A stretch of 64,000 nucleotides of DNA from Prevotella sp. (GTDB taxonomy: Bacteria; Bacteroidota; Bacteroidia; Bacteroidales; Bacteroidaceae): positions 4,442 through 68,441 of the forward strand of contig JAGCDO010000001.1 of the NCBI GenBank assembly GCA_017651265.1, written 5' to 3'. The translations under genes and the position numbers were made by a program. Positions within the stretch are counted from its first letter, which is position 1. Each line of letters opens with the position of its first letter. Shown here in pieces: positions 7,363 to 35,485 of this stretch. The notes beneath the pieces were generated by a model that saw only the letters and a list, made by a program, of their open reading frames with translations, was not told where the DNA came from and did not search any database.

Positions 7363-7466
7363 GTTTTAGAAGAAGAACATGTTTTTAGACATAATAACAT
7401 AAGAACATAATACCAAAGAACCAAAATAGATACCACTGACTCCAGTTTGACTACAACATATAACAA

Positions 7467-7501: not shown

Positions 7502-7528
7502 CTATATATAGGTATTATTACCTGTAGT

Positions 7529-8620: not shown

Positions 8621-8635
8621 TTGTATAAAAGTGGC

Positions 8636-9679
8636 TTAATTAAGATTTGGTTTTTTTGCACCTAACATGACATGTGCAAGCCATGGACTCAGTCTTATTA
8701 TTTCACTCAGCAGCAAACAGAGAGAGATGATTCCTGCTGCAATAATAAGACTTACAAAAAACTCAATTACAGGATTCTCTGCCAACTGCAAGAACCTTCC
8801 CACCATATCCAAATGCCTTGGCAAAAGGAAATAATGAATCATATATATGTCCAAGGTCCTGATTCCTATCTGTTGAAAGATCCGTCCACAAAAAGTTTCT
8901 TTAGAGAAAAAAGATTGTTTTTTCCTGAAAAAAGTAAAAGAAAGAAACGTACCTGAAAGGCCTAAAACAAGGACATTGATACCATAACTGACATGAGCAA
9001 CTTCATTACGACACATGAATGTCAATAAGAAAACAGCAAGCAACACAGCAACCACGAATTGGTTATCTGTGAGACGAACGAAGATATCGAAATACTTTCT
9101 TACCATTATTCCAATCACAAAGAACAGGAAATACCACCATTGGGAAAAACTCAAGCCATTATAAAAGTATCCAAACAATCCTGAAACATCACCTACAGGT
9201 TTTAAACTTGAACAAAAGACGAGGAATGCTAGAATTGAAAGAATCACATCCAAGAGTCTGTCTTTCATTCGAATTTTCACAAGAAATCTCTGTAAGATAG
9301 CATAAAAGACAAAGAAGAAAAAGAGAACTATTGTAAACCAATATCCTGCTTTCCATTCATTCAAAATCGTATTTCGAATATTTAATTCGAAAACGTAAAT
9401 GCTCAGAAGCATGAACAAACAAGAAGGAACTATTAGCTGTTTGAACTTATCTCTACAAATGTATAGGATATCATGCCTCTCCTTCTTTTGACTGTTCCCC
9501 CTATAACAACACCATCCACTAACAAAAAAGAACAGAGGCAACATAAAGAAATTAAAGATATGATAATAGCTCTTCGATAGAACCATTCCATAACTGAACA
9601 TTCCTAAATGATACAAGACAACTAGTATCATACAGAAACCTCTTAAGGCATCAATATACTCAATACGTTGCTTTGCCAT
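8636..9679 (-). CDS. Acyltransferase family 3 (AT3) integral-membrane O-acyltransferase
   Basis: 347 aa and polytopic. N-terminal RIEYIDALRGFCMILVVLYH is the AT3 R/H motif. It is a clear paralog of 28938-29975, sharing RTLDIYMIHYF.LPRHL...NPVIEFF...RLSP.L.H. Confidence 0.85.
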   Translation of the reverse strand: MAKQRIEYIDALRGFCMILVVLYHLGMFSYGMVLSKSYYHIFNFFMLPLFFFVSGWCCYRGNSQKKERHDILYICRDKFKQLIVPSCLFMLLSIYVFELNIRNTILNEWKAGYWFTIVLFFFFVFYAILQRFLVKIRMKDRLLDVILSILAFLVFCSSLKPVGDVSGLFGYFYNGLSFSQWWYFLFFVIGIMVRKYFDIFVRLTDNQFVVAVLLAVFLLTFMCRNEVAHVSYGINVLVLGLSGTFLSFTFFRKKQSFFSKETFCGRIFQQIGIRTLDIYMIHYFLLPRHLDMVGRFLQLAENPVIEFFVSLIIAAGIISLCLLLSEIIRLSPWLAHVMLGAKKPNLN

Positions 9680-9985: not shown

Positions 9986-10537
9986 TTAAACACCAGGAAT
10001 TATGATGTCTTTTTTATGTTCAAACTTATCATCGGGCAATGAAAGCAACATACGCTTTTTCTTTTCACCTGTCATCCCAAATGTTCCTGTATCATATTTC
10101 TCTTTTAATCGTTTATAGAAATCTTCTGTTTTACCAATAAACTTCGCCGGATTACCTGCCACCATGCACCCATCAGGAACATTCCTAGTAACAACACTAC
10201 CCGCACCAACAATACATAGTTCTCCGATTTTCACTCCAGGCATTATCATGCAGTTCGATTCAATTGAAGTAAAACTACCAACCGATATTTTACCAAAATG
10301 ATCTAATGTTGGATCATTGTAATATACCCTCAAAGGCAACACTCCTCCATGTGTGAAAAAACTTGTATTTCGGGCTATTCTAACATTGTTACCAATAATT
10401 ATTAAATACGGTTCAGATCCATACGATGTGGAAGAATCTATGTGGCAGTTGTCTCCAACAATAACACCAATTCTTTTCGCGTAAGATTCTGGTGTCATCA
10501 ATAATTTGCAAATGAAGTTTAAAATTCTTTTAAGCAT
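9986..10537 (-). CDS. Hexapeptide-repeat (left-handed beta-helix) O-acetyltransferase
   Basis: 183 aa. Repeating [LIV]-G-x4 hexapeptides (IGVIVGDNCHIDSS..IIGNNVRIA..IGELCIVGAGSVVTRNVPDGCMVAGNPAK). Confidence 0.85.
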   Translation of the reverse strand: MLKRILNFICKLLMTPESYAKRIGVIVGDNCHIDSSTSYGSEPYLIIIGNNVRIARNTSFFTHGGVLPLRVYYNDPTLDHFGKISVGSFTSIESNCMIMPGVKIGELCIVGAGSVVTRNVPDGCMVAGNPAKFIGKTEDFYKRLKEKYDTGTFGMTGEKKKRMLLSLPDDKFEHKKDIIIPGV

Positions 10538-10612: not shown

Positions 10613-11176
10613 CTAATCTTGGTTACCGACTTTATATCTTTTTCTTACGAAAGCTCCGGGATTGTCATAGTGCAACACTTTTGCTGGAACACCTGCTGCT
10701 GTTGCCTTAGATGGAATGTCCCGTGTTACCACTGCTCCGGCACCTATCGTGACATCATCACCAATGGTAACATCCTCAACAATGCATACACTCGGACCTA
10801 TCCACACATTATCACCTATCTTTGCAGCCTTACCTTTATTAGAACCAATGGTAGTAAAAGAACCAATATTACAATTATTCCCAATAACAGTAGTTTCGTT
10901 GATAATAATCCCAACGCCATGGCTCAAAAATAGCCCATATCCTATTTTTGTTCGCCAAGGAATCTCAATTCCGTATCTTCGCGACATCATCCGATGCTTA
11001 AACTCAGCTAATGGCCATAACCACCCATCTCGTTTCATGGTCAATCTCAGCCAGAACTGATAGGCAAATTTATGATTGAGAAAAGTGTATGTAAGCACTT
11101 TGAAAGCTGAACGACCTGTCCTACTATATCTAACATAATCACTTAGGATATACTCCCAACAATCTTTATATGTCAT
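10613..11176 (-). CDS. Serine-acetyltransferase-like (CysE/WcaB-type) hexapeptide acetyltransferase
   Basis: 187 aa. Helical N-domain followed by [50 protein letters not shown]. Confidence 0.8.
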
Positions 11177-11188: not shown

Positions 11189-12265
11189 TTAACCAACCCA
11201 CATTCCTGTAATCATGTTATTCCATAAGAAATATGTCAATAGCCCACAAGTTCCAAATAGTGCAATCAATCTATAACTCTTGGGCAGATAGAAAATAAGA
11301 GAAGGTATGATGGCAAATTCCAATGTGGCAAACTGAGAACTCGTTCTACCTGACAACGCTGTAAAAGAACAGAATGTGATTAGAATCAGTGTTGAATACC
11401 AATACCCATTTCTGAAAACATAATAGTATTTATACCTTGGTGATAGTTGTTTTTCTAAAGATACATATATCAACAAAAGAATTGATTGGAAATAGATCAT
11501 CGGATTTGCTAATCCCAACGCTTTTGAAACATAGCCTCCCTGTACATAAGTGGTTGCCATGTTAAAGTCATAGGCAGTATCAGTAACAAAAATGGATATC
11601 GGTCCTTGGAAAAAAGCACCTAAGATAAAAGCAATACCCAAGCCTATATATATATGTTTACGTTTAAGCGTCAGATAGTTATGAATAAAATAAAAAGGTA
11701 TGGCTATCAAAGCACTATGATGTAACTGGTATGCAAAGAATATAACAATCAGGAAACGTAATAAGTCTTTTTTATAGATATACTGCAACCCCAAAAGAAT
11801 AATCACATAACTCAAGCCTGCGCGTATCTGAATAAGATTCCTGCCGCAAAAGAATCTTGCAATGTAACAAAATAGTCCTAATACAGGATAGAGTGAGTAT
11901 TTTCTGAGATCTTTAAACAAGAAGAACATGGTTAAACTTGATATGACTAAGAAATATACCCTCACATCTTTTGAAAATGATTTAATAATCACAGATAAAA
12001 GATGAAACCCTCGCTCATCATAACCTTTGGGAACAGATGAGAGAGTATACCCAGAAAGCGTAGGAGTAATATCATCACTTAAATAGAATTCAACGTACTT
12101 GAAAGTGTCCATCCAATAGAGACTGCGATACCCTGCTCCTATGGCTAAGATCACACACACAAAGGCTAAGACATAGACTCTCTGTTTTCCTTTTGACATA
12201 TCAACCGTTGTTGCCAAAAAGAACCCTAAGACAAACAATACTAAAAGAACTGTATTACTAATCAT
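11189..12265 (-). CDS. EpsG/Wzy-like polysaccharide polymerase (polytopic membrane protein)
   Basis: 358 aa with about 10 hydrophobic segments and no soluble domain. Its position within the GT block fits. The family call rests on overall resemblance only. Confidence 0.55.
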   Translation of the reverse strand: MISNTVLLVLFVLGFFLATTVDMSKGKQRVYVLAFVCVILAIGAGYRSLYWMDTFKYVEFYLSDDITPTLSGYTLSSVPKGYDERGFHLLSVIIKSFSKDVRVYFLVISSLTMFFLFKDLRKYSLYPVLGLFCYIARFFCGRNLIQIRAGLSYVIILLGLQYIYKKDLLRFLIVIFFAYQLHHSALIAIPFYFIHNYLTLKRKHIYIGLGIAFILGAFFQGPISIFVTDTAYDFNMATTYVQGGYVSKALGLANPMIYFQSILLLIYVSLEKQLSPRYKYYYVFRNGYWYSTLILITFCSFTALSGRTSSQFATLEFAIIPSLIFYLPKSYRLIALFGTCGLLTYFLWNNMITGMWVG

Positions 12266-18084: not shown

Positions 18085-18830
18085 ACCCCAGCTACTGTTT
18101 TTTTGAGATATTCAGTGTATTCTTGTGGAATACCGCAAAAGATTACGTCATCCCGTTGAATCAGATGGATGTGTATATTCTTTCCCTTACGTATCAATTC
18201 ATTATAAAGAGGTGCCACATAGTACTCTTTAATACGATCAGTTGTGTAAAGACCAGATGCGCCATACGCCTCCTTGAAATCTGCTGACTTCCTGAAATAA
18301 TAAATACCAGTAGAGCAGTAACGGGAGATTTCCCTCTTCTCCGCTGTTTCCACGACTCTTGTGCTATCCTCCGACTCTGTTCTTGCATACGACCAATTGG
18401 CTCCGCAACCAGCAAAGACTTCCAGATATCCATCCCATTGATCTATCTCTTCCGGGAATTTGAATCCAGGACGGAAGGTATCTATATTAAAGATCAAGAT
18501 GGATGATTCATTTGGAACGCAAGCCCTCTCAAGCCCCAGCAAGACTGTTTCGGCCTGTCCCTTTGTAGGTTGATCCAAAACCACCACATTGTATGATTTG
18601 ATACCCAACAATTCACACTCTTTTTCAATGAATGTTTTTGTATCAAACACATTTCTCGCAATAAAGACAAAACGCGCTTCATCAAAATACCGTTCAAAAC
18701 TACTGACAGCCAGATTGAACAAGCTTTTGTCATGAGCATATAACATGTACTTGGGCAAGGTAAATCCAGCCTTCGTAAACCGTGAGCTGAGCCCTGCCAT
18801 GGGAATAACAATGACGGGTTGATTATTCAT
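18081..18830 (-). CDS. Sugar/alcohol-phosphate nucleotidyltransferase (GT-A-like NTP-transferase fold)
   Basis: 249 aa. The N-terminal VIVIPMAGLSSRFTKAGFTLPKYML matches the G-x-G-x-R nucleotide-binding loop of NDP-sugar pyrophosphorylases. Confidence 0.65.
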   Translation of the reverse strand: MNNQPVIVIPMAGLSSRFTKAGFTLPKYMLYAHDKSLFNLAVSSFERYFDEARFVFIARNVFDTKTFIEKECELLGIKSYNVVVLDQPTKGQAETVLLGLERACVPNESSILIFNIDTFRPGFKFPEEIDQWDGYLEVFAGCGANWSYARTESEDSTRVVETAEKREISRYCSTGIYYFRKSADFKEAYGASGLYTTDRIKEYYVAPLYNELIRKGKNIHIHLIQRDDVIFCGIPQEYTEYLKKTVAGV

Positions 18831-20367
18831 GATTATCTAATTGTAAATAAAGTCTTAATGCATTGGCAAGAAGTGCTTTCTGCCGAAGGGGATTGTCATG
18901 GTGCAAGGGGAGCATAGACAAGAACAAGTGAATGACCAAAGGAAGTACGGACAACTCCTGTAATGAATACCCGGCAAAGGTCATGTTTTCAAATATACGC
19001 TGCACGGTATGAACTGTTTCATTCTCGAACACCCTAAAGTTGATTTGATAAGGGTTTGACTCCTCGTACGAGAACCTACCTCCTATGATAAAATCATATA
19101 ATCCGATGATAGAATGAGCCATCTTCGCCACATCATACCTTAAATCGCCAAACACACTTAACTCTCCTTCTGATGTGATTCCCCGTGGATCTATCACTTT
19201 GATACCTTTCGACTTAAAATCGTAAAGAATATTACTGAAACAAAAATCTCCATGCATCAGCGTGACAAAGTCAAGGTTGTCCGTATCAATCATGTCCGAT
19301 GTCCTTTGGCAAATCTTCCTTAGAGAGGGAACTGAAACACCATTCAACTCCCAGTCATGATCCAAGTCGATTCCCTGCTGTGAAGCATAAAGGGTTAGGC
19401 GCGATAGTGTTTTCTCTGCGAACAACTTCCGGTTTTGAGAGGCGACTGCTAACCGATTTTCCGGTTTGAACCTTGATTCATCACTTAAGAAGGCATTACA
19501 AGCCTTCAGGATATCATTCCATACATAGGGAGGATTCTTGGCAAAGACAAAGAGGTTTGCCAATGAACTGAGATAGTAGTATTCCATTTGATAATAGCCC
19601 ACTTCCCCATTCTCTCCAGCATCCCATACTGCAGGGGCATAGTGCTTCATCTCCATTGGCAGAGATTGCAGCCAATTGGCTTCAGCCGCCATCTTTATTT
19701 TATCGGCACTCCGCTTTGTGATACTATTAGGCGTAGCGACCAAACTATTAAACACACGTTCAGTGGTCATCTTAGAAATGGAGCGGTAATAGGTATTAGC
19801 CAACCCAAAGTCCTTCCAAGTGCTATTCTTTATGCGTTGGATGGGATTTTGCTGGTTATATTTTTCTACCCCCTTTATGAACTGATAATTACACTGGGTA
19901 ATGCACCGGATTAACTGTTGCTGCGAACTAAAACTAAAGAAACCGGAAAATATCTCTCCACTTCCCACCATGGTTTCTGCCCAGGCATAGTCGTCTTCTA
20001 CATTTGCCACCGTACAACTGTCTGGAACAAAATCCAGTTTGTCGAACAGGGTATCACCATGCAGTAAGAATAAAGGCTCATCGTATCGACTTACCATATT
20101 TAAGGAAAAGACGACAGACTGCCCCAACGACAATCCTATTGGGACGTACACTACTTCGACCTGAACTTCCTGAAGAAATATCTTATCTCCTTCTTCCAAC
20201 TCATAATCGGCAGGAAGCGACAATACAACATGTTCATCTGGTGGAACTAGTTTCAGTTGATGCATATATAACCTTTTGTTCTGTACAGGCAGCATCGCCG
20301 GAGGCAGCTTACCAAACTCAGAAACCAAGGCCGGACTGACGTATGCAGCTGAAGTTATAAGAATCAT
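18823..20367 (-). CDS. Two-domain protein: degenerate nucleotidyltransferase-like N-domain plus APH/choline-kinase-fold phosphotransferase
   Basis: 514 aa. The N-part has FGKLPPAMLPVQNKRLY. The C-part has LMHGDFCFSNILYD....KVIDPRG, matching the H-x-D-x4-N catalytic loop and metal-binding D of aminoglycoside/choline kinases. Confidence 0.65.
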   Translation of the reverse strand: MILITSAAYVSPALVSEFGKLPPAMLPVQNKRLYMHQLKLVPPDEHVVLSLPADYELEEGDKIFLQEVQVEVVYVPIGLSLGQSVVFSLNMVSRYDEPLFLLHGDTLFDKLDFVPDSCTVANVEDDYAWAETMVGSGEIFSGFFSFSSQQQLIRCITQCNYQFIKGVEKYNQQNPIQRIKNSTWKDFGLANTYYRSISKMTTERVFNSLVATPNSITKRSADKIKMAAEANWLQSLPMEMKHYAPAVWDAGENGEVGYYQMEYYYLSSLANLFVFAKNPPYVWNDILKACNAFLSDESRFKPENRLAVASQNRKLFAEKTLSRLTLYASQQGIDLDHDWELNGVSVPSLRKICQRTSDMIDTDNLDFVTLMHGDFCFSNILYDFKSKGIKVIDPRGITSEGELSVFGDLRYDVAKMAHSIIGLYDFIIGGRFSYEESNPYQINFRVFENETVHTVQRIFENMTFAGYSLQELSVLPLVIHLFLSMLPLHHDNPLRQKALLANALRLYLQLDNHE

Positions 20368-20780
20368 TTTACTAAAGAACGAATATACTCTTTTTCTTTT
20401 TTCAGCATTTCATCGATCTGCTCCAATGACATGGAATGGAACTCAGAAGGGCGAATGCTTTTGTCATCAATGTAGAAGCCCGTAAAGCCGCACCAAGGCT
20501 TTCCCACGATGATTTCATCGTAAGGAACCTGATACCGATTTAGCCAATTCACAATATTAGGCAATGTATGCACATTAATCTTGCCTACTTGTCCTTCGTA
20601 TGTTCTCATTTGCCTACTGGAATGAATCACAATGAGGAAGCCCTCCTCCTTGTATTTCCTTAACAAATCAATAGTTTCTTGAATGGGTTTACTATTCTGA
20701 TAATCACCCTTCTCTGTGACAGAGATGGTATCATCAAGATCAACTACCAACTTCTTTACTTTATTCAAATCTTCTGCCAT
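20364..20780 (-). CDS. Small HAD-superfamily phosphatase
   Basis: 138 aa. LVVDLDDTIS is the DxDxT motif I, and a downstream SSR...GKP..IDD pattern follows. Confidence 0.65.
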   Translation of the reverse strand: MAEDLNKVKKLVVDLDDTISVTEKGDYQNSKPIQETIDLLRKYKEEGFLIVIHSSRQMRTYEGQVGKINVHTLPNIVNWLNRYQVPYDEIIVGKPWCGFTGFYIDDKSIRPSEFHSMSLEQIDEMLKKEKEYIRSLVK

Positions 20781-21853: not shown

Positions 21854-22558
21854 CTAATACAACCTACATGAATACCCATCGAATTCATACGTCATCGGCT
21901 GGGGACGTTCATTCACTTTCTTTGCAGGAATACCAGCAACGACAGCATAAGGTTCCACATTTTTAGTAACAACACATCCTGCACAACATACAGCGCCTTC
22001 TCCTATTCTTACTCCTGGCAAAACAATTACATTACACCCTAACCAGACGCGATCTCCAATTTCAACATGCATTTGTTCATTAGACATATTACATTCAAAA
22101 TTAGGATCCCTATGATCATGTTGCAAGGTGTAAATCGATACATTTGATGAGATGTTCACATGTCTGCCAATAGACAATCCACACCTTGCATCGAGAATGG
22201 CATGGTCTCCTATAATGCTTCCTTCACCCACTGTCAAATTTGTTGGATAACGTATTTCTGTTCCCACATGGAAAACGACATTCTTACCTATTGAAACACC
22301 TAATGCTTTATATATCCACTTCCGAAGATGAAGAGAGGGTAATCTGGACACTTGAAATAGCATATATCGTTCCCATCCTCCACGACACAATTTCTCAAAC
22401 AAGATATAGGGATAAGCGAACAATTTGTATGGCATTCCATATTTGCGATGCTTTTTCATATATGCCTGCACCATCTGAAAAGGAAACAGCAAGACTATTA
22501 GTATCCATTTCAAATAGATAAGAAGGACAAGAACCAGAATAATGTGAACAAGACCCAT
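21854..22558 (-). CDS. Membrane-anchored hexapeptide-repeat acetyltransferase (WcaF-like)
   Basis: 234 aa. An N-terminal hydrophobic helix is followed by IGKNVVFHVGTEI..VGEGSIIGDHAILD..IGDRVWLGCNVIVLPGVRIGEGAVCCAGCVVTKNV. Confidence 0.8.
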   Translation of the reverse strand: MGLVHIILVLVLLIYLKWILIVLLFPFQMVQAYMKKHRKYGMPYKLFAYPYILFEKLCRGGWERYMLFQVSRLPSLHLRKWIYKALGVSIGKNVVFHVGTEIRYPTNLTVGEGSIIGDHAILDARCGLSIGRHVNISSNVSIYTLQHDHRDPNFECNMSNEQMHVEIGDRVWLGCNVIVLPGVRIGEGAVCCAGCVVTKNVEPYAVVAGIPAKKVNERPQPMTYEFDGYSCRLY

Positions 22559-23507: not shown

Positions 23508-25412
23508 TCATAACCTTCTTCTTACACCTTTCAATAAACGTCTAACAAAACGATTACTGGCCGACCGATATAATTGGCCTCTTCGGTATAATAAGAATAA
23601 CCTATCTTTAATTGGTATAGTTTTATTAGATAAAGCCAAAGCATTTTCTAACTTATTGACAACGGCTGAGGAACTCATGTAATCTTCAAAGGTTATACTC
23701 TTCAGAGCTGTGGAAACACGTCCCACATACTCCGAACGTGGGAATAATCTCTTTAACAAAAGGGAACACTCGTAACTATCAATTTTATGCCGTTTATCAA
23801 CATTGATTCCACCTAAGTAACGGGAACAAGGTTTATTCAAATCAGAGATAGAGCAGGACCACCCAAAATCAATTAAGGATACAGAACACCCACCATTGGT
23901 TTCACTTACAAGGATATTACCTGCCATTATATCACGGTGAACAATTTGATGCTCAACAAGATATTTCAAAACGCCAATGATAGAGCTAACGAATGACTGT
24001 ATATACCTGAGAGTTAAATGATGCTGGACACAAAAGAACTGATCAACAGGAATACCAGGAACCCGTGATTCCTCTATCAAAGACAAATTATTACCAAGTT
24101 CTTCAAATCTAATAATGCTTGGAACGACATGGCTGCCATCCAAAGCCTTCAGAATACTGCACTCATTTTCCAGCAACCAGTCTGTTCCTATCTTTACAAA
24201 GCTATTGTCTTTTTTGAATACTGCACTATAAAAATGACCAAATGGTTCCTCAAAGAAATCAAGTTGTTTGATACATTCACCGTGCCGAAAAGCAATTTCT
24301 GAGTATTGCAGATTCTTTTTGTTATACAAAACCGACTTATCATCGGGTCGTACAAATTCATAATTCCTTGGCAACATGAATTGGTCCAATAACCTGACAG
24401 CATCCTCTACTTCCTTACTAAATGTGACATTGATGGTCTCACCGTAACTAGCTAATTTGGGGAAATAATCAGGTTTAATCTCCCACTTTTGTATATATGC
24501 ATGATACAGTAAGGAATAGAACTGGTGCTCTGGTGACGGTATATAGAACAAGTCCTTGCTCATTACCCTCGTTTTCAAAATATCCTGTTCCCATTTAGGA
24601 CAATAATAATTATCCTGTACATAGCGGAAATCAAAGGGGACATCTTTTCCTGCAATATTAATAATATGATATACTCGGTATGATTCCTTGAAAACAGGAC
24701 GGGCAAGGGTCAAATAAGCTGCATAATTCTTGTTAGCCACCAACAAATCGATATCGCCATGTCCTTCAACGGTATATTCTTCCGGAAGAACTTCATGGTT
24801 ACGCAACACCACATATTCAATCGTATTGTTCAACACATAGAACAACTCGGAAATGGAATGATAGCCACCAACACCGAGACAATTGTGTTTCCACTCATCT
24901 TCTTCAGGTAACCCTGTTCTTTCAATTGAAAGATCTGCCAGATTGAACTTCCGGCAAAAATCTTCGGTATTCTTACCGAAAAGGATGGTCAAGTCCTTAT
25001 TGGTTTCCCATGCATCGTCACTACTATGGATGCGATGACCACCGCCCACCATCTCACGATAAGCATATTTTTTATCAAACACCCGTGTATTTACTTTTCT
25101 AACACCACCAGATGTCTCACGTTCCTCAAAAAGTGGATGGTCGTCTTTTAAGATGATTGCTGTGAATTCACCATCTCCACATACATTCACTTTATTCTCA
25201 AGAATACGACGATAGTCGTTTCGTTCTCTATGGCACTGGGAATGAGAATAGAACACAAAGAAATTGTCTAAGAACTTTTCTTTCTCCCAGCTGCAACGGA
25301 ATACTTTTAGAATAGTAAAGTCTTTCTGAAGGTCATCAAGGATATAGTCTTTATATGACAGAGCCTTCGACCATATGATCATTAAGTGAATTATTGAATC
25401 CTTATTATTCAT
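23508..25412 (-). CDS. Multidomain protein with a C-terminal protein-kinase-like domain (HRD..N / DFG) and a central GHGDIDLLV segment; function unknown
   Basis: 634 aa. The catalytic-loop-like IVHRDIMAGNILV is followed 12 residues later by LIDFGWS. The central YVVLRNHEVLPEEYTVEGHGDIDLLV resembles nucleotidyltransferase-fold metal sites. I could not assign the N-terminal ~150 aa. Confidence 0.55.
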   Translation of the reverse strand: MNNKDSIIHLMIIWSKALSYKDYILDDLQKDFTILKVFRCSWEKEKFLDNFFVFYSHSQCHRERNDYRRILENKVNVCGDGEFTAIILKDDHPLFEERETSGGVRKVNTRVFDKKYAYREMVGGGHRIHSSDDAWETNKDLTILFGKNTEDFCRKFNLADLSIERTGLPEEDEWKHNCLGVGGYHSISELFYVLNNTIEYVVLRNHEVLPEEYTVEGHGDIDLLVANKNYAAYLTLARPVFKESYRVYHIINIAGKDVPFDFRYVQDNYYCPKWEQDILKTRVMSKDLFYIPSPEHQFYSLLYHAYIQKWEIKPDYFPKLASYGETINVTFSKEVEDAVRLLDQFMLPRNYEFVRPDDKSVLYNKKNLQYSEIAFRHGECIKQLDFFEEPFGHFYSAVFKKDNSFVKIGTDWLLENECSILKALDGSHVVPSIIRFEELGNNLSLIEESRVPGIPVDQFFCVQHHLTLRYIQSFVSSIIGVLKYLVEHQIVHRDIMAGNILVSETNGGCSVSLIDFGWSCSISDLNKPCSRYLGGINVDKRHKIDSYECSLLLKRLFPRSEYVGRVSTALKSITFEDYMSSSAVVNKLENALALSNKTIPIKDRLFLLYRRGQLYRSASNRFVRRLLKGVRRRL

Positions 25413-25422: not shown

Positions 25423-26880
25423 TTAATATCCCTTAAGTTTATTCTTTACTATACTCATAATCTCATATAACGAATCATCTTTACGAATATATGCCATCAT
25501 AAAATAACACAGCATCCCAACAGGAATACCCACTAGTAACTTCATGGCAGGGGCGGCAACTAAACGCATACTCAAATATACGACAGCCCCCATCAGCAAG
25601 GAGTTGCTTAACATCGGGAGAAGTATTTTTATCTGACGACTAAGTCCATATCCTACAATCTTATTGGTATAATAGCAATTGATAAAATATACAATCACGG
25701 AATACAATGCCTTTCCCACCATCATCCAGATAATACCCAAAGGAAGACTGGCGAACAATAAAAGAAGCCCAATGGGTTTCTTAATAAACTCCAACTTAAA
25801 TGAAATATCTGTTCTTCCCTTAGCATACAAAATATTCATGTTGAATCCATTCAATGGGAAAAACATATATCCCACGCAAAGAATGCGCATATAAGGCACA
25901 CAAGGCAACCACTTGGCTCCGATTAGAACTTCAATTAATGGCTCTGCACAGACGATAAGACCAACCAATAACGGATATAATATAAAGAATGGTACTTTCA
26001 GTAGTTTCTCGTATGCACTAATTAAACGATCATTATCATTCTGCAATTTCACCAAAATGGGGAAATTCACACGTAAAGCAACATCATTAATGATATTACT
26101 GGGCATGGCAGCATACCCGTTGGCACGATTATAAAAACCTACAGCAGTAGGGCTGAAGCCCTTTCCGATAACCAAAGTATACAAATTTCCATAAATACAA
26201 TTAATGATGCCAGAACCTAACATGTTGCCACCATAGCTGAAAAGACTGCGAAATGACTTTCGGGAAAAACCGATTGTAGGTCTCAATCCGGAACATATCC
26301 ATACGATAATTCCTGAAATCAATGCACTGGCTATTCCCTGAAAGACCAATGCCCAGATGCCAAAACCGAAATAGGCAAGCAAAACACCTGTCAGTCCTGC
26401 TGTAAAAGTACCAACCAAGGAAATCTTGGACAGCGTGCTGAACCGTAAATCAATGTTCAGCTTAGCGAAATGGATACTGGTAAAGCCACGAATAATAAAA
26501 GTCAGTGCTGAAACATATATAATTGTTTTTAAGAGAGGTTCATTATAAAAGGCCGCTATACTGGGTGCAAAGATAACAAATAGGCCATATATAGTGAGGG
26601 ATGACACGATATTAAAGACAAAAACGGTGGAGAAATCTTCGCGCGTCCTGTTTTGCCGTTGAATCAAAGCGCTGGAAAAGCCAGAATCTGCCAATACCAT
26701 AGCCAACCCAAAGAAAATGGCAAGCATTCCGACAAGTCCGTAGTCGCCGGGAGCCAACATACGGGCAAGGTACAATTCTACTATAAATGTCATCACATGG
26801 TTCACTGATATTTCTATCAATTTCCATGTGGCACCACTGACTGCTTTATCCCTTAACGAACCTTCTGGCATATCAAACAC
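25423..26880 (-). CDS. wzx: Wzx-type oligosaccharide flippase (MOP/PST family polysaccharide biosynthesis protein)
   Basis: 485 aa with about 12-14 TM segments. The N-terminal KAVSGATWKLIE...VELYLARMLAPGDYGLVGM is typical of PST flippases. Confidence 0.8.
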   Translation of the reverse strand: MFDMPEGSLRDKAVSGATWKLIEISVNHVMTFIVELYLARMLAPGDYGLVGMLAIFFGLAMVLADSGFSSALIQRQNRTREDFSTVFVFNIVSSLTIYGLFVIFAPSIAAFYNEPLLKTIIYVSALTFIIRGFTSIHFAKLNIDLRFSTLSKISLVGTFTAGLTGVLLAYFGFGIWALVFQGIASALISGIIVWICSGLRPTIGFSRKSFRSLFSYGGNMLGSGIINCIYGNLYTLVIGKGFSPTAVGFYNRANGYAAMPSNIINDVALRVNFPILVKLQNDNDRLISAYEKLLKVPFFILYPLLVGLIVCAEPLIEVLIGAKWLPCVPYMRILCVGYMFFPLNGFNMNILYAKGRTDISFKLEFIKKPIGLLLLFASLPLGIIWMMVGKALYSVIVYFINCYYTNKIVGYGLSRQIKILLPMLSNSLLMGAVVYLSMRLVAAPAMKLLVGIPVGMLCYFMMAYIRKDDSLYEIMSIVKNKLKGY

Positions 26881-28937: not shown

Positions 28938-29975
28938 TTATTTCTCTCCCAGTAAATAATGGGATAATAGAGGACTAAGTCTAACGATATTACCTATCAA
29001 AATTGAAACGAAGATAATCAACAAGACTATTGCGGACGTGATGAAGAACTCTATCACAGGGTTTACATTATCCGAAAAGAATTGACCCAAACATTTTAGA
29101 TGCCGTGGAAGTATGAAATAGTGAATCATGTAGATATCCAAGGTTCTCTTACCGATATATTGCATGGTTCTACCCAATAATCTATCCTGAGAGAAAGAAT
29201 GCTGATATTTATAGAAAAATGCGAAGATAATCCATACACTCACTCCACCATATAGGATAGCTCCAACAGGTTTCCACATAGGAAGATTAATGTAATCGGA
29301 AAATAATACCATCAAGAAGAAAACAATGATAACCACAGCCATCACTATAGATTGCTCAATAAGTTTCTTCACTGCTAAGATATGCTTTCTCATTAAAACA
29401 CCCATAGTAAAGAATACATATAACCGCCAATGCTTCATTCCTAAATACTGGAACAAATCAGCCCCGATTTGTGTCTTTTCCATGATTGTATGAGAGAAGC
29501 TCAGACAATAGATAAGTAAAGCAATAACTAATAGAAAAATACTTTGATAGCTACTCTTTGCATACCTAACTACCGTCATTGTCAAAGTATAGATAACAAA
29601 AAAGAAAAACAATTGAACCGTAAACCAATACCATGAAGTGGAGATACCCCATAATGGATCAAAGCTAAAAGCAATATTCCAAAGATTTGCTAACTGCCAA
29701 CACAAAACGAGACAAAATACAACAGATGGTATGATAAGTTGCACGAACTTTCTCTTCCATATTCCAACAATACTTTTGCGCGTCCAGGAAAAGTCTTTTT
29801 TATATGCAACGAAACCACTGACAAAAAAGAACAATGCCAGGAAAAAGTTTACCAGAATATGATCAAACGATTTACTTGAATCGGTTTTGTAACAATATGT
29901 CCAAACATGCGAATACACAACAAGGTACATGCAAAAACCTCGAAGTGCATCAATATATTCTATTCGTTTGTTCAT
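28938..29975 (-). CDS. Acyltransferase family 3 (AT3), paralog of 8636-9679
   Basis: 345 aa. KRIEYIDALRGFCMYLVVYSH and RTLDIYMIHYFILPRHL..NPVIEFF..RLSPLLSH. Confidence 0.85.
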   Translation of the reverse strand: MNKRIEYIDALRGFCMYLVVYSHVWTYCYKTDSSKSFDHILVNFFLALFFFVSGFVAYKKDFSWTRKSIVGIWKRKFVQLIIPSVVFCLVLCWQLANLWNIAFSFDPLWGISTSWYWFTVQLFFFFVIYTLTMTVVRYAKSSYQSIFLLVIALLIYCLSFSHTIMEKTQIGADLFQYLGMKHWRLYVFFTMGVLMRKHILAVKKLIEQSIVMAVVIIVFFLMVLFSDYINLPMWKPVGAILYGGVSVWIIFAFFYKYQHSFSQDRLLGRTMQYIGKRTLDIYMIHYFILPRHLKCLGQFFSDNVNPVIEFFITSAIVLLIIFVSILIGNIVRLSPLLSHYLLGEK

Positions 29976-30901
29976 TGTTGCGTTGATAAGACAGGCTTTA
30001 AATGCTTAACAATTAGATTAGAATAAAACACAGAACCTTCATTATTAGTATGATATGGATTATCATACAAGAATTTATTAGGAACTGCTGATTCTTTTGC
30101 ATCAAAAAGCTGGTTAATACCTCTTTCTTCCATGAAACCAGCCAGCCGTTCAATGGCAAGTCTATCTGATTGATATTTCAACTGATGTCTTACTGAGGGT
30201 ATGATATATACTGTACACCCACGCTTCTTGATCTTGTTTAAACGATCGGCTATTGAAATTAAATATGTAGTGTTATTTGAAACGTAATCTGTCGAATCAA
30301 TTTTGCCCTTCCCAGGATATTGATAGGGTTCCTTTTCAGGCTTTATGATATCACCATACTCATCGATGCTATTCAATGTATAGAATTGAGTATCTTTCCC
30401 TGTCCATTTACTTTTTAAATAGTTTATCTTCCCTTTTAACAAAGGAAAAATGCCAGATACTACACAAGCTTTGTTAGGATAACTCAACTCAAAGAATTTA
30501 CTTGGATAATAATCAACTAAATATGGTACACTATAGGCATCGCTTCCTCCTTGTCCTACCCCCAAAAAGGAACTAAATGAGAAAAGAACGACATCCCCCT
30601 TTCTTGAATGTTTCAATGCATCGTTCAGATTTAAATCAACCCCCAGCCCTGCATGCAATCCCAAATTGGCAACATTAATCTTCAGACTGTCTTGAAGTAA
30701 CTTGGAATTAATAGACATGGCCACCTCGCTACCACCAAGAATTAAAAGGCGTTGCCCTTTCATGGTATCCAAACGGTTATACTTTAATGCATATCCCTTA
30801 TAATAACCATTGGGATTAGAAGGTAAAGAAAAGGCTATTATTGCAGGAAGGATATAAGCAAATAAGACCAGCAACAATAGGTATTTCAAGAACTTATTCA
30901 T
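29972..30901 (-). CDS. DltD-like / SGNH-like extracytoplasmic acyl-transfer protein with an N-terminal membrane anchor
   Basis: 309 aa. The anchor is FLKYLLLLVLFAYILPAIIAF. LLILGGSEVAMS resembles the DltD G-S-S-E serine motif. The C-terminal YDNPYHTNNEG resembles the DltD D..H block. It lies immediately downstream of the MBOAT gene. Confidence 0.5.
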   Translation of the reverse strand: MNKFLKYLLLLVLFAYILPAIIAFSLPSNPNGYYKGYALKYNRLDTMKGQRLLILGGSEVAMSINSKLLQDSLKINVANLGLHAGLGVDLNLNDALKHSRKGDVVLFSFSSFLGVGQGGSDAYSVPYLVDYYPSKFFELSYPNKACVVSGIFPLLKGKINYLKSKWTGKDTQFYTLNSIDEYGDIIKPEKEPYQYPGKGKIDSTDYVSNNTTYLISIADRLNKIKKRGCTVYIIPSVRHQLKYQSDRLAIERLAGFMEERGINQLFDAKESAVPNKFLYDNPYHTNNEGSVFYSNLIVKHLKPVLSTQQ

Positions 30902-30903
30902 TG

Positions 30904-32325
30904 TTAGAACTGGAAATAAATGAATTCGTTTCGGCCAAAATTACCAAATAACATGATTATATATGCTAATGCAATAGATGATATCGTATAGAATGACAAG
31001 AAATGCCGTTCGGCAAGTGATGTCTTTTTATACTCTATTGCATACTCTATCACAAAGAGCATGAAGAGAAAGAAGAGAATCCTTTTGTTATTCAAAAACA
31101 CCAATGCTCCATTAAGGTCTGTAAATATACGTTGTATAACAGTAAAACCATCACTTACTGTATTGGCACGGAAGAAAACTAATGCCAACATTACAAGGAA
31201 GAAAGTGACGATGCGGTTGAGCCAAAGCCACCATTCCTTTTTCTTCAATTTGTATTTCTTTTCAAACTTTTTCTGTCGTTTCTCTTTCAAGATACAAACT
31301 ACCAGATATATACCAAATATCGAGAATGATATGACATAAGTCCAATTAGCGCCATGCCAAAAACCAGAAAGGAAGAAGGTAAAGAAAATGCAAAAGCACC
31401 ACCATTTCTGACTTGTACTGCTACCAACCAAAGGATAATACACATAATCCATGAACCATGTGGTTAAAGAGATGTGATTGCGTTTCCAAAAGTCTTGAAC
31501 TGATACAGAAAAGAAATACGGACGACGGAAATTATCCATGAGTTTATAGCCCATTACGGCAGCACTACCAATAGCGATAAAGGAATAACCGGCAAAATCG
31601 CCATAAAGCTGAAAACAGAAGAAGATACTTGCCATTAACGCGCTTCCTCCTGAAACCTGCGTGTCAAGATGATTATAAACGCTATTTACCAAAGGAGCAA
31701 GATTATCAGCAATCACCAGTTTAAGGAAATAGCCCCATAACATCAAGGTAACTCCTTTTATGGCCATTTCCCCATTGAACTTATGTTTTAAATGAAACTG
31801 TTGGAGCAAATTGGTTGATCTTTCTATTGGACCTGCGACTAATTGGGGAAAGAATGACACGAAAAGGGCATAGGTAAAAAAGTCTTTTTCAACCTTTACT
31901 GACTTGTAGTAAACGTCAATAGAATAACCAAGTGCCTGGAAGGTGTAAAAAGAGATACCTACAGGCAATAATACTTTAAATTCGGGTATATGGATGGATA
32001 CACCTGCAACACTCATCAATGTAGTAATGTTGTCTGCAGCCCAATTGAAATACTTAAAGAAAAACAATATGGAAAGGTTGGCTACGATAGATATAGCAAG
32101 GATCGTTTTCTTTCGATTTTCGTATTTATCGATACCCAAAGAGGCTAAATACGTGATAACTGTACTTGCTAAAAGCAAGAGTGCATACACAGGTTCCCAG
32201 TTCATATAGAAATAGTAGCTTGCAACGAGCAAGAACATATTTCTCCATTTCAAAGAGGGTATTGCATAATACAAGATGCAAACGACAGGAAAAAAAAGAA
32301 GAAAGTCTAACGAATTAAATAACAT
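30904..32325 (-). CDS. MBOAT-family membrane-bound O-acyltransferase (DltB/AlgI/PatA-like)
   Basis: 473 aa and polytopic. FWKRNHISLTTWFMDYVYYPL and SGFWHGANWTY carry the conserved MBOAT histidines. Confidence 0.9.
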   Translation of the reverse strand: MLFNSLDFLLFFPVVCILYYAIPSLKWRNMFLLVASYYFYMNWEPVYALLLLASTVITYLASLGIDKYENRKKTILAISIVANLSILFFFKYFNWAADNITTLMSVAGVSIHIPEFKVLLPVGISFYTFQALGYSIDVYYKSVKVEKDFFTYALFVSFFPQLVAGPIERSTNLLQQFHLKHKFNGEMAIKGVTLMLWGYFLKLVIADNLAPLVNSVYNHLDTQVSGGSALMASIFFCFQLYGDFAGYSFIAIGSAAVMGYKLMDNFRRPYFFSVSVQDFWKRNHISLTTWFMDYVYYPLVGSSTSQKWWCFCIFFTFFLSGFWHGANWTYVISFSIFGIYLVVCILKEKRQKKFEKKYKLKKKEWWLWLNRIVTFFLVMLALVFFRANTVSDGFTVIQRIFTDLNGALVFLNNKRILFFLFMLFVIEYAIEYKKTSLAERHFLSFYTISSIALAYIIMLFGNFGRNEFIYFQF

Positions 32326-32328
32326 GAC

Positions 32329-33336
32329 TTACTTAATAGTTAACATGGTTCCACCCCAAGATAATCCTACGCCAAAACCAGATATCATCACTTTATCACC
32401 TTTCTTAATAGAACCATTATCAATACAATCTTTTAGACCAATCAATACTGTTGACGAGACTGTATTGCCAGTGTTAGATAGGTTTATGAAAAATTTGTCT
32501 TTGGGCAAGAGACAAAATTTACGTATGGTACTTAACATAAATTTGTTAGCCTGATGGAAAACATAATAGTCTATTTCGTCCTTCTTCAGTTCATTCTTAT
32601 CTAGAATATCGTTCATCATGGCCGGAACTGCATCTAGGGTGAAATTGAAAATGGCTCCCCCATTCATGTATAGATAATCATCATACCATATATGTTCCTC
32701 TTCATCTTCAACAAACTTGCCTGTCGGAGACTTTTGACGAGATGCACCAGTCTTGACAATCAAGTTGCTTGCCCCACTACCATCAGTACCCAAAGAAAAC
32801 TCACCAATCTCGGCAAAGCCCTCGGTAGAAATCAGACAAGCGGCTGCTCCATCGCCAAAAATAGAACGATTACTCTTATCTGATGGATGAAGGTATTTGT
32901 TATAAGTTTCTGCTGTTAACAGAAGGACATTGTGGGCTATCCCTGCAGATATCAACCCCTTAGCCATAGCCATACCATATATGCAGCCTGAGCATCCAAG
33001 ATTATAATCAAAAGCGCCTGCTGATGTTGGAATACCAAGTCGGTCTTGTAAAACACAAGCAGTAGAAGGAAGGAAATAATCAGGACTCTGCGTACAGAGC
33101 ATGATGAAATCAATTGTCTTAGGATCTACATCATATTCCTCGAAAAGTCTAAGAGCTGCCTTTTCTGCCAAATCACCAGCCGTTTCATTGTCAGCTGCAA
33201 TATGTCGAGAGTCCACTCCAACCTTTTGTGCCACTTTGTCAACACTCCACTCTGGGAACTCTTTCACGAGTTCCTCATTAGTTACCACCTTTTCTGGTAG
33301 ATAATACGAAATTGCTTTTATATATGCCATAATCAA
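32329..33336 (-). CDS. 3-oxoacyl-ACP synthase III (FabH-like KASIII)
   Basis: 335 aa. Cys in NLGCSGCIYGM, His in VFHQANKFM, Asn in SNTGNTVSSTV: a complete C-H-N triad. Confidence 0.85.
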   Translation of the reverse strand: MIMAYIKAISYYLPEKVVTNEELVKEFPEWSVDKVAQKVGVDSRHIAADNETAGDLAEKAALRLFEEYDVDPKTIDFIMLCTQSPDYFLPSTACVLQDRLGIPTSAGAFDYNLGCSGCIYGMAMAKGLISAGIAHNVLLLTAETYNKYLHPSDKSNRSIFGDGAAACLISTEGFAEIGEFSLGTDGSGASNLIVKTGASRQKSPTGKFVEDEEEHIWYDDYLYMNGGAIFNFTLDAVPAMMNDILDKNELKKDEIDYYVFHQANKFMLSTIRKFCLLPKDKFFINLSNTGNTVSSTVLIGLKDCIDNGSIKKGDKVMISGFGVGLSWGGTMLTIK

Positions 33337-33337
33337 C

Positions 33338-34081
33338 TCAGCTTCCCCCCCCTGATATTTTCACATTACTTCCTGTCATCCAAGTGGATGCATCTGATAA
33401 CATATAAACTGCGAGATTCGCAATATCCTCAGGCTGCCCATAGCGTTTGAGGGGATAACGTTTTTCATCTTCTTTCAGCTGTTCTTCGTCAACAGCTTCA
33501 TTCTGTATCAAATCTGTCCACACCATCGCAGGACTAATACAGTTAACCCTAATATTTCTTGGAGCCAACTCTAATGATAGACAATTAGCGTATGATATGA
33601 TGGCTCCCTTAGAAGCACTGTACATGGAATTACCCATACTGGGTGACCATGAGGCAATGGATGCTATAAAGACAATAGAGGCACCCTTGTTTATTTTCTT
33701 TTGCCGAAGAATTTCTGCTTGAAGCAACACAGGAGCTTTGAAATTGACATCCATCACTTGGTTTAAACTTGAGTCTGTTAAATCTTTGCACGGCATTCGT
33801 TGCCCAACTCCAGCACAATGTACTATTCCATCCAGTTTGGGGAGTTTAGCCACTAGACTTACGACTTGATTCTTATCTGTCAAATCGCCAGGTAATACGA
33901 TATGCCCACCTCCCTCCATCATGGAGAAGGTTTCTTGAAGTTTAGCAGTATTGCGCCCATTGACAATGACTGCTGCTCCCATCCTACTGCAGACTATGGC
34001 TATACCACGGCCAATACCAGATGACGAACCAGTTATTAGAATTGTTTTCCCGGAAAGCGAAAAAGGGTTATAATCAGCCAT
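33338..34081 (-). CDS. Short-chain dehydrogenase/reductase (FabG-like 3-oxoacyl-ACP reductase)
   Basis: 247 aa. ITGSSSGIGRGIA (the TGxxxGxG motif) and the catalytic YSASKGA (YxxxK). Confidence 0.85.
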   Translation of the reverse strand: MADYNPFSLSGKTILITGSSSGIGRGIAIVCSRMGAAVIVNGRNTAKLQETFSMMEGGGHIVLPGDLTDKNQVVSLVAKLPKLDGIVHCAGVGQRMPCKDLTDSSLNQVMDVNFKAPVLLQAEILRQKKINKGASIVFIASIASWSPSMGNSMYSASKGAIISYANCLSLELAPRNIRVNCISPAMVWTDLIQNEAVDEEQLKEDEKRYPLKRYGQPEDIANLAVYMLSDASTWMTGSNVKISGGGS

Positions 34082-34309
34082 TTATTTCGAGGCAATTAGA
34101 TTATAAAGATCCTCAACTGTTTTGCAGGAACGGACTTCCCTTCCTGTAATGGTCTTACCATATATGGTCTTAGACATAGCTATCAAACTCATAGCTGTTA
34201 AAGATGACCACTCGTCGAGTTCCTGATACTCTGTATCTGCCTGAATATCACTGGCCTCAACATCATCAAGTTGTTCTGCAAAATTCTCGATAAAACTTTT
34301 TAAATCCAT
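34082..34309 (-). CDS. Dedicated acyl carrier protein
   Basis: 75 aa and acidic. ELDEWSSLTAMSLIAM is the phosphopantetheine Ser context (usually DSL). It has the ..TVEDLYNLI tail common to polysaccharide-locus ACPs. Confidence 0.75.
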   Translation of the reverse strand: MDLKSFIENFAEQLDDVEASDIQADTEYQELDEWSSLTAMSLIAMSKTIYGKTITGREVRSCKTVEDLYNLIASK

Positions 34310-34421: not shown

Positions 34422-35150
34422 TCATAACTTGTAATATAAGTAACCGATGAGCTCGTGGAGGAGGGTTTGCCAGTTATTCATGACGGTAAAGGAGAACAGG
34501 GAGTTGCGTTTCCCCTTTTCCATGATGATGCAGTCGGTGGCATAGGGGTCCACGGGGATTCCGGCTTGCTCGAAGGTCATCACTGCGCGACGCATGTGTT
34601 CGGCAGAGGTGATGAGTAAGGGGCGGGCGCTCTTTAGGGAGTCGCCTAACTGCTCCAAAAGGAACTGGGCATTCTCGCGGGTGGTGGTGGCTTTATTCTC
34701 TAAGATCAGATCTGTGGGGGCCACGCCTAATCGTTCGATGTATTTGCGCATGCCGATGGGGTTGCCTGACTTGTCGTCGGGATTATCGGGGATGCGGTTA
34801 CTGCCGTCGGAAGCTAATACTATTTTCTTGATGGCCCCTTTATGATAGAGCTGGATTCCTTCCAAGAGGCGGTCAACATGTTTGCTAAAATCTGGTCGAT
34901 CGCGTTCCTCATCCCATTCTCCAAATCCGCCGAGGACAATGCCGTAGTGATAGGTTGTTCCTGGTTTAATCTCTGTTGTCAAGCCGTCGGCCCAGATATT
35001 TGACAAGAGGTTGTAGATGGGACGGCAGGTGAAGAACAGGGCGAGAGTAACTGCTGTTGCAATGAGGGTGTTCCGTGTGCGGCGTTTGCTGCGGAACAGG
35101 TAGGCTGCCAGGAGCAGGAGAAGAAGATAGAATACCGGAGAGGTGATCAA
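34422..35150 (-). CDS. YdcF/ElyC (DUF218) family protein
   Basis: 242 aa. An N-terminal TM helix is followed by GIVLGGFG...ILENKATTTRENAQF...LLITSAEHMRRA. Only a TTG start (35150) is available, and the frame stays open through the upstream heptamer array. Confidence 0.75.
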   Translation of the reverse strand: MITSPVFYLLLLLLAAYLFRSKRRTRNTLIATAVTLALFFTCRPIYNLLSNIWADGLTTEIKPGTTYHYGIVLGGFGEWDEERDRPDFSKHVDRLLEGIQLYHKGAIKKIVLASDGSNRIPDNPDDKSGNPIGMRKYIERLGVAPTDLILENKATTTRENAQFLLEQLGDSLKSARPLLITSAEHMRRAVMTFEQAGIPVDPYATDCIIMEKGKRNSLFSFTVMNNWQTLLHELIGYLYYKL

Positions 35151-35453: not shown

Positions 35454-35485
35454 CAAAATTAATACTTATATATGATATAACCAAA
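35454..35485 (-). promoter_or_regulatory. Bacteroidota-type promoter (TTTG-N20-TAATTTTG) about 300 nt upstream of ydcF and the polysaccharide operon
   Basis: Plus strand reads CAAAATTA at 35454-35461 and CAAA at 35482-35485, with a 20-nt spacer. Confidence 0.5.

Follow-up and report, generated by a model that had tools for sequence, protein, structure and literature searches.

How might an acyl group built on a carrier protein in the cytoplasm come to decorate a polysaccharide outside it? The question is raised by five adjoining genes in a 64-kb stretch of the genome of a Prevotella sp. from gut or rumen (64,000 nucleotides of contig JAGCDO010000001.1, hereafter the window), which encode an acyl carrier protein (ACP), a FabG-like ketoreductase (KR), a FabH-like 3-ketoacyl-ACP synthase III (KAS III) and a membrane-bound O-acyltransferase (MBOAT), together with a membrane-anchored partner of 309 aa with a predicted SGNH fold. 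A first reading of the window, made without database searches (the sequence-only reading), had proposed a Dlt-like cassette in which a mini fatty-acid synthase replaces the adenylating ligase, and a short 3-hydroxyacyl group passes from the private ACP through the MBOAT to the glycan. Having followed this up computationally, we judge it moderately probable that in this cassette a carrier protein feeds an MBOAT-SGNH system, by which the capsule or exopolysaccharide of the locus is O-acylated. By analogy with known systems we infer that the ACP hands its acyl group, which is probably 3-hydroxybutyryl, to the MBOAT.

The five cassette genes and their products

The genes lie on the minus strand where they had been placed previously, with intergenic gaps of -4 to +3 nt, and each is present as one copy in the window. 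The ACP gene (34082–34309, 75 aa) is followed by those for the KR (33338–34081, 247 aa), the KAS III (32329–33336, 335 aa), the MBOAT (30904–32325, 473 aa) and the partner (29972–30901, 309 aa). A Prevotella sp. metagenome-assembled genome (MAG) has annotated proteins identical to the MBOAT (MBO7577390.1) and the ACP (MBO7577393.1, 'acyl carrier protein [Prevotella sp.]'). Assignment of the smallest product as a dedicated ACP was borne out by a marginal Pfam PP-binding match (21.2 bits, cut-off 20.8); generic ACP models of NCBIfam score below their cut-offs, and there is no DltC-specific match. Its candidate phosphopantetheine site, Ser36 in a WSSL motif, is invariant in 61 homologues. The KR is, as proposed, FabG-like, i.e. 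a short-chain dehydrogenase of the 3-oxoacyl-ACP reductase type (adh_short_C2, E 7.8e-51; KR domain, E 1.2e-13) with TGSSSGIG and Y154xxxK158 motifs, and it scores 154 bits with FabG models, under their equivalog cut-offs.

The KAS III has both ACP_syn_III and ACP_syn_III_C domains, and the intact Cys-His-Asn triad attributed to it is present as Cys115, His261 and Asn291, in motifs of the FabH type (LGC115SGC, FH261QAN and TGN291TVS). It exceeds the cut-off of the FabH subfamily model NF006829 in NCBIfam (274 bits against 249) and falls under that of TIGR00747, fabH (242 against 292). Its best relative in the PDB is 3gwa (E 1e-97), with E. coli FabH (1hn9) at E 6e-39. Close homologues of the KAS III form more than 120 clusters at 85–97% identity; the 309-aa protein has 19 close homologues.

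The MBOAT (Pfam MBOAT, 61 bits) has both of the expected histidine motifs, with His284 in RNHIS and His324 in FWHGA, and it ends with the sequence F468-I-Y470-F-Q-F473 (FIYFQF), which matches the acyl-shuttle motif FxYxxF. Among 78 related MBOATs His324 is conserved in 100%, His284 in 99% and Tyr470 in at least 99%, and 77 of the 78 have the FxYxxF C-terminal end. The only solved structures that match it by sequence are those of DltB (6bug and 8jem, E about 4e-22), and its score with the DltB equivalog TIGR04091 is 149 bits, against a cut-off of 375. In the Dlt system DltB takes D-Ala from the carrier DltC, the FxYxxF tyrosine hands D-Ala on to the SGNH protein, and the motif resides on a separate microprotein, DltX (PMC12148441). 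Where the motif is fused to the MBOAT, the tyrosine is acylated by PatA itself, the donor for PatA being acetyl-coenzyme A (acetyl-CoA) (PMC12148441). Since FxYxxF is fused to the cassette MBOAT, we assign the MBOAT/partner pair to the PatA/PatB type and not to the Dlt family; for the same reason the cassette would need no DltX.

Absence of a DltA-type ligase, a central element of the sequence-only reading, was upheld, in that no AMP-binding Pfam match is found in the 26 operon genes and no PS00455 AMP-binding signature in open reading frame (ORF) segments of at least 60 aa across the window. Nor did domain searches of the operon genes bring up a dehydratase or an enoyl reductase, and an elongating KAS I/II was likewise absent from the cassette and its vicinity. 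The description as Dlt-like thus stands for the predicted relay and for the combination of carrier, MBOAT and SGNH fold, but not for the families themselves, as none of DltA, DltB, DltD or DltX is recognised. By analogy, the cassette would be a functionally Dlt-like relay with a mini fatty-acid synthase in the place of DltA.

The 309-aa partner has an SGNH fold in its structural model

No match to the 309-aa protein was found by sequence in Pfam, NCBIfam or the PDB; a nitrogenase Fe protein that appeared as a PDB relative (E 0.45) was rejected as a chance match. The protein belongs to a large family, with 416 matches in a word-indexed search and 5952 representative clusters at E <= 0.001. A Pfam scan of 70 family members at E values up to 1 gave no DltD match, although weak matches were seen to the AlgX SGNH domain (two members) and to DUF6473 (five members). 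Residues K40, G56-G57-S58, L82, G85, D103, G183-D184 and H284 are invariant in the family.

We obtained an AlphaFold model of the protein using 70 sequences (predicted local distance difference test 88.6; predicted template-modelling score 0.87), in which an N-terminal helix at residues 2–25 is followed by an alpha/beta domain. The top Foldseek matches in the PDB are all SGNH-fold proteins, including rhamnogalacturonan acetylesterase (1deo, E 1.4e-4) and DltD (7dxm, 3bma and 6pfx, E 1.5e-4 to 8e-4, probability about 1), with further matches to YxiM, TesA, sialate O-acetylesterase, PatB and the C-terminal domain of OatA. The model thus has a DltD/SGNH-like fold, and the serine and histidine to be expected with it are invariant (GGS58 and His284); Ser58, in GGS58E, and His284 are candidate catalytic residues. 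The DltD-like sequence blocks that had been described were sustained in part, as GGS58 and His284 are invariant but the aspartate of the 'D..H' block (D280-x-x-x-H284) is not conserved across the family. Because none of the 70 relatives has a DltD Pfam match, the term 'DltD-like' is valid for the fold and the N-terminal anchoring, which are supported by AlphaFold and Foldseek, but not for the sequence family.

Probable coupling of the MBOAT to the ACP-KR-KAS III triad

Evidence on a functional connection comes from 88 loci anchored on KAS III relatives in rumen and gut metagenomes, in which genes were called with a greedy ORF picker. An MBOAT directly follows the KAS III in five of 70 such loci, as compared with none of 593 non-adjacent genes, and in these five (L103, L110, L118, L138 and L139) it is 65–78% identical to the window MBOAT. 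A complete cassette is also present in L082, with a homologue of 72% identity. Overall, the block ACP-KR-KAS III-MBOAT-partner is kept in eight loci with unrelated flanks. The partners in these eight loci fall into two very distant subfamilies, both with a transmembrane anchor and both encoded after the MBOAT; members of the second are about 295–317 aa, have GASR and DxxH motifs, and match the profile of the 309-aa family at E values of 1e-12 to 2e-3.

The seven triad-linked proteins of full length are 65–91% identical and group as a single clade when 78 MBOATs are placed in a tree; among 70 ACP-less MBOATs, the closest to them has 46% identity. The ACPs show a related pattern. Four of 75 ACP columns carry a signature of MBOAT linkage, namely E8, Q29 (H in others), R57 (K in others) and K63 (E, V or D in others); the MBOAT-linked ACPs form one clade, and the nearest neighbour is MBOAT-linked in 7/7 cases. 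No signature positions are found in the KR (0/247) or the KAS III (0/332), for which the nearest neighbour is MBOAT-linked in only 3/7 and 2/7 cases respectively. Nearest-neighbour concordance over all transferase classes is likewise 34/56 for the ACP, 26/56 for the KR and 16/56 for the KAS III. Linkage alone would give the reverse ranking, because in the order ACP-KR-KAS III-MBOAT the ACP is farthest from the MBOAT. These patterns lead us to favour triad-MBOAT coupling over two independent modules, and the ACP covariation, together with the conserved block, argues for ACP rather than acyl-CoA as the donor to the cassette MBOAT.

A second MBOAT/partner pair with its own ACP

We also approached the question from the partner family, taking one genome per species, which gave 80 loci from Bacteroidota, Firmicutes, Planctomycetota, Cyanobacteria, Spirochaetota and other phyla. 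An MBOAT gene lies directly upstream of the partner gene in almost all of them. A KR and a KAS III are present only in L001, a close relative of the cassette (83% identity), and an ACP only in L001 and L064, the latter being the sole find when the other 79 pairs were searched with a sensitive triad-ACP profile and an approximate E. coli AcpP sequence. A more distant homologue (P0020 in L081, 30% identity) is part of an MBOAT/partner pair without the triad.

L064 (Prevotella sp. SIG146, 4038–8912) encodes, in order, an FkbH-like protein of 579 aa, a glyoxalase-like protein, an ACP (PP-binding, E 1e-8), an MBOAT that ends with FIYFQF, and a partner of the 309-aa family. Its gene content resembles that of a further carrier-fed MBOAT-SGNH system, here with a loader of the glycerate type, and we regard it as an independent instance in which an MBOAT/partner pair is accompanied by an ACP-loading enzyme. 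A sulfatase/lipoteichoic acid synthase-like gene follows the partner gene in this locus. No ACP accompanies the second MBOAT of L003 and of L004, which is sister to the L064 clade. An AMP-binding ORF beside the MBOAT in L066 was considered as a loader and rejected, as it proved to be an acetyl-CoA synthetase on the opposite strand. This gene (L066:4267–6231, in a Sumerlaeota MAG) is divergent from an ACP-less pair, and fits an acetyl-CoA donor for ordinary pairs.

The triad is associated with several acyltransferase classes

The ACP-KR-KAS III triad is not confined to MBOAT-containing loci. It is intact wherever the contig is long enough, with the KR between ACP and KAS III in all related loci, and is found in many different Wzx/Wzy loci. 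An acyltransferase is directly beside it in 27 of 31 distinct neighbour signatures (hexapeptide in 19, GNAT in five, MBOAT in three), GNAT acyltransferases flanking it in loci other than ours. Since an acyltransferase adjoins the triad in so many contexts, the triad appears to act as a donor module placed beside its user, and these neighbourhoods mark this conserved set as portable, in that it recurs with no fewer than three classes of acyltransferase. Reuse of this kind would offer Prevotella a simple genetic means of diversifying its capsules.

There is no adjacent hexapeptide or PglD-like user in the window, where the ACP has a DUF218 gene as its upstream neighbour and the KAS III has the MBOAT gene downstream. 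The three hexapeptide proteins of the window share just 25–35% identity with the triad-adjacent ones; orthology therefore gives no support to one of them as the true acyl-ACP user, a role that we consider unlikely.

Several features of the related loci are of note. Hexapeptide transferases of about 210–300 aa encoded directly upstream of the ACP in L095, L124 and L137 share a C-terminal tail of ~50 aa (GF..TPEEIIE.EK...ER...L.KNY.KYF.NRI.EIK) that is missing from generic hexapeptide acetyltransferases such as those of the window; the tail may be an ACP-docking element. In L090, L096, L101, L146 and others a ~600-aa fusion (ferredoxin-like, FrhB_FdhB_C and C-terminal hexapeptide regions) directly precedes the triad, and an aldo-keto reductase usually follows the KAS III. 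A 324-aa protein without a Pfam match is encoded after the triad at L083:8006–8980 (also in L084–L086 and L093), followed by a polysaccharide deacetylase, and it may represent a further class of acyl-ACP-using transferase. In L001 (10520–16402), whose locus is the nearest relative of that in the window, the cassette is followed by a second module, ACP-KAS III-KR-KAS III-KR, and then a third ACP; the gene content of this second module is as predicted for 3,5-dihydroxyhexanoyl synthesis in Flavobacterium psychrophilum.

Alternative explanations

An alternative explanation is that two independent modules lie side by side, an acetyl-CoA-using MBOAT/SGNH pair resembling PatA/PatB or AlgI/AlgJ/AlgX, and a triad that serves a cytoplasmic acyltransferase such as a hexapeptide protein of the locus, their adjacency being inherited synteny. 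Several observations point this way and weigh against a carrier-fed MBOAT. In 78 of the 80 MBOAT/partner loci there is no ACP, KR or KAS III within 8 kb, so the default donor of such pairs is probably acetyl-CoA, as it is for PatA; a mechanistic paper of 2025 moreover states that non-Dlt MBOAT/SGNH pathways lack a carrier protein, since acyl-CoA is the donor (PMC12148441). The triad itself is usually paired with a hexapeptide or GNAT protein, as predicted for WfpG of F. psychrophilum (PMC6519341), and a hexapeptide transferase gene is directly upstream of the ACP in 38 of 58 loci, compared with 23 among 593 non-adjacent genes. Three hexapeptide genes of the window (21854–22558, 10613–11176 and 9986–10537, all minus strand) and its five acyltransferase 3 (AT3) genes could in principle use the triad product. 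We further note that the eight cassette loci all come from one genus, Prevotella of rumen and gut, and from only three or four of its sub-lineages, and that the triad-linked MBOAT loci were collected through KAS III and not from the MBOAT side; that the trees are neighbour-joining trees of short or very similar sequences, and Fisher P-values ignore relatedness; and that the PP-binding score of the ACP is marginal and the Foldseek template-modelling scores of the 309-aa model are modest (0.34–0.45). Independent modules are nevertheless harder to reconcile with the persistence of ACP-KR-KAS III-MBOAT despite differing flanks and a swap of partner subfamily, with the separate clade of triad-linked MBOATs, or with an ACP that tracks the MBOAT from the distal end of the block when the KR and KAS III do not. 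MBOAT-type loci, furthermore, have no hexapeptide gene directly upstream of the ACP, the window hexapeptide proteins are merely generic relatives of the triad-adjacent ones, no aminotransferase or dehydratase for making an amino sugar to be N-acylated is present among the locus genes, and L064 provides a second ACP-MBOAT coupling with a different loader. We therefore consider independent modules to be unlikely. The proposal that a 3-hydroxyacyl group passes from the private ACP via the MBOAT to the glycan is thus strengthened by block conservation, the MBOAT clade, ACP covariation and L064, but is tempered by the fact that such pairs normally lack an ACP.

The coupling could also be real and the acyl group something other than 3-hydroxybutyryl, if the KAS III uses another primer (propionyl, isobutyryl or longer) or acts mainly as a loading transacylase, or if the KR acts on another keto group. 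Primer choice varies widely among FabH-family enzymes, the KAS III is far nearer to the paralogue 3gwa than to E. coli FabH and is under the TIGR00747 cut-off, and the related locus L001 has two KAS and two KR genes, as in the dihydroxyhexanoyl prediction for F. psychrophilum (PMC6519341). The intact Cys-His-Asn triad, however, argues for decarboxylative condensation, one KAS and one KR without dehydratase or enoyl reductase would give a 3-hydroxyacyl group after one round, and acetyl-CoA is the commonest FabH primer, so that another short acyl group seems to us quite improbable. Still further from the data, and in our estimation highly improbable, is a triad unrelated to glycan decoration, which would instead start the synthesis of a lipid anchor or a long-chain fatty acid, for example for lipid A, for a lipoglycan or for a lipid-linked primer. 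ACP, KAS III and KR do correspond to the first steps of type II fatty-acid synthesis, and rhizobia have dedicated ACPs for the very-long-chain acids of lipid A, but dehydratase, enoyl reductase and elongating KAS I/II are missing in and near the cassette, and many different Wzx/Wzy glycan loci contain the triad next to sugar acyltransferases. The glycan of F. psychrophilum, moreover, has a short hydroxyacyl amide, and a similar module is encoded in the adjoining cluster (PMC6519341).

A proposed mechanism

In the carrier-fed mechanism that we prefer, Ser36 of the private ACP would be phosphopantetheinylated and the ACP malonylated by the housekeeping phosphopantetheinyl transferase and FabD, neither of which is encoded in the locus. 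The KAS III would join an acyl-CoA primer, most simply acetyl-CoA, to malonyl-ACP, and reduction by the KR would yield a short (R)-3-hydroxyacyl-ACP, which from the chemistry of these families would most simply be 3-hydroxybutyryl-ACP; synthesis would halt here because the dehydratase and enoyl reductase are absent. The acyl-ACP would then dock at the cytoplasmic face of the MBOAT, where His324 and His284 would promote transfer of the acyl group to Tyr470, in a manner comparable to DltB/DltX and PatA. From Tyr470 the group would pass to Ser58 of the periplasmic, membrane-anchored SGNH-fold partner, which would esterify a hydroxyl of the Wzx/Wzy-made glycan.

Carrier-fed MBOAT-SGNH acylation could be a general modular principle, in which exchangeable ACP loaders provide non-acetyl esters for extracytoplasmic glycans of Gram-negative bacteria, and surface residues of the ACP (here Q29, R57 and K63) set the acyltransferase class; we see the chances for and against this wider proposal as evenly balanced. 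The loaders would be DltA for D-Ala, KAS III with KR for 3-hydroxyacyl groups, and FkbH for a glycerate-derived unit. A second carrier-fed system would contradict the prevailing view that only Dlt feeds an MBOAT from a carrier and that all others use acyl-CoA, and would mean that the MBOAT tunnel and tyrosine shuttle can accept other ACP-borne acyl groups. It would also explain how Gram-negative gut and rumen bacteria could add hydroxyacyl esters to capsules after export, and the ACP-fed and CoA-fed MBOATs, at about 46% identity, would constitute a natural pair for studying donor choice.

The surrounding polysaccharide locus

The cassette is at the head of a same-strand array (7529–34309, 26 genes, 26.8 kb, minus strand), which agrees with the operon of ~27 kb described previously. 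GC content is 35–43% in the locus and 46–54% in its flanks. The remainder of the locus (7529–28905, minus strand) would build the acceptor glycan and includes genes for a Wzx flippase (25423–26880, minus strand), an EpsG-type polymerase (Wzy; 11189–12265, minus strand) and seven glycosyltransferases, together with the three hexapeptide genes and two kinase-like genes. The latter encode proteins of 634 aa (23508–25412), with a Pkinase-like region at residues 415–526, and 514 aa (18823–20367), with a weak EcKL match; a HAD-like protein of 138 aa (20364–20780) is encoded beside them. Of these, the gene for the 634-aa protein is also conserved in L082.

The three AT3 genes reported directly after the cassette were seen in the Pfam domain search, and two further AT3 genes are present in the array. 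The first of the three (28938–29975, minus strand; Acyl_transf_3, E 1.6e-26) overlaps the partner gene by 4 nt. It belongs to a family (F5) that is present in the window, L001 and L082 and absent after the cassette in L103, L110, L118 and L138, so that its association with the cassette is restricted to the lineage of the window. With one MBOAT, five AT3 and three hexapeptide genes, the array has nine acyltransferase genes, which suggests an unusually heavily acylated polymer.

A DUF218/ElyC-like gene (34422–35150) is located 112 bp upstream of the ACP gene. Sigma-70 and terminator scans gave counts equal to the level in shuffled sequence, and no Bacteroidetes -7 box (TAnnTTTG) is present in the 112-bp gap. 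The nearest minus-strand -7 box is at 35454–35461, upstream of the DUF218 gene, and for this reason the DUF218 gene may be co-transcribed with the cassette. In L082 there is no DUF218 gene, and a PMI homologue abuts the ACP gene.

Comparison with known systems

The one carrier-to-MBOAT route known to date is that which places D-alanine on the teichoic acids of Gram-positive bacteria, and it involves DltA, DltC, DltB, DltX and DltD. The cassette resembles this system in having a carrier-protein gene beside genes for an MBOAT and a membrane-anchored SGNH-fold transferase, and in the predicted relay from donor to MBOAT histidine, FxYxxF tyrosine, SGNH serine and polymer. It differs in having no DltA-type ligase in the window, the predicted loader being KAS III plus KR, and in carrying FxYxxF on the MBOAT and not on DltX, although no search was aimed at ORFs of less than 60 aa. 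Its MBOAT is under the DltB equivalog cut-off and its partner lacks a DltD Pfam match. The cassette differs too in its Gram-negative host, in having a Wzx/Wzy polysaccharide as acceptor, and in the predicted transfer of a hydroxy acid in place of an amino acid.

The pairs PatA/PatB, AlgI/AlgJ/AlgX, WssH/WssI and Bacillus PatA1/PatB1 share with the cassette the invariant MBOAT histidine and fused FxYxxF, as well as a separate extracytoplasmic SGNH-fold protein encoded by an adjoining gene in a polysaccharide locus. These pairs, however, are carrier-free and use acetyl-CoA (as shown for PatA), whereas the cassette block includes a private ACP and its loaders, and the cassette partner comes from a large family that has no Pfam model.

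LpxA and LpxD are hexapeptide acyltransferases with (R)-3-hydroxyacyl-ACP donors, and thus provide a precedent for sugar acyltransferases that take a 3-hydroxyacyl group straight from ACP; one class of triad-adjacent hexapeptide proteins has a weak match to the LpxD N-terminal domain (E 0.0018). Both, however, are soluble enzymes of lipid A synthesis that take long acyl chains from the housekeeping ACP, and neither belongs to the cassette.

The closest parallel for the donor side is the O-antigen locus of F. psychrophilum, in which wfpC and wfpE (KAS), wfpD (ACP), wfpF (KR) and the PglD-like wfpG are predicted to synthesise and attach a 3,5-dihydroxyhexanoyl group (PMC6519341). The O-antigen does carry a 3,5-dihydroxyhexanoyl amide, the pathway being a prediction from sequence and the known glycan structure (PMC6519341). 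As in the cassette, a private ACP, KAS and KR are encoded without dehydratase or enoyl reductase in a Bacteroidota glycan locus, and a short hydroxyacyl-ACP is the predicted direct acyl donor for the glycan. The same logic is seen in the 38 of 58 Prevotella loci with a hexapeptide transferase before the ACP. The reaction predicted in F. psychrophilum is cytoplasmic, the amide being formed on a nucleotide amino sugar by a soluble transferase of the hexapeptide class, whereas the MBOAT and periplasmic SGNH partner of the cassette predict an ester formed outside the cytoplasm. We found no ACP-, mini fatty-acid synthase- or FkbH-fed MBOAT-SGNH system described in our literature search, so the earlier statement that the wiring is without precedent holds for the MBOAT, but a mini fatty-acid synthase for glycan N-acylation had already been proposed in F. 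psychrophilum. With a donor module of the triad type predicted there, the novelty of the cassette is confined to the MBOAT wiring.

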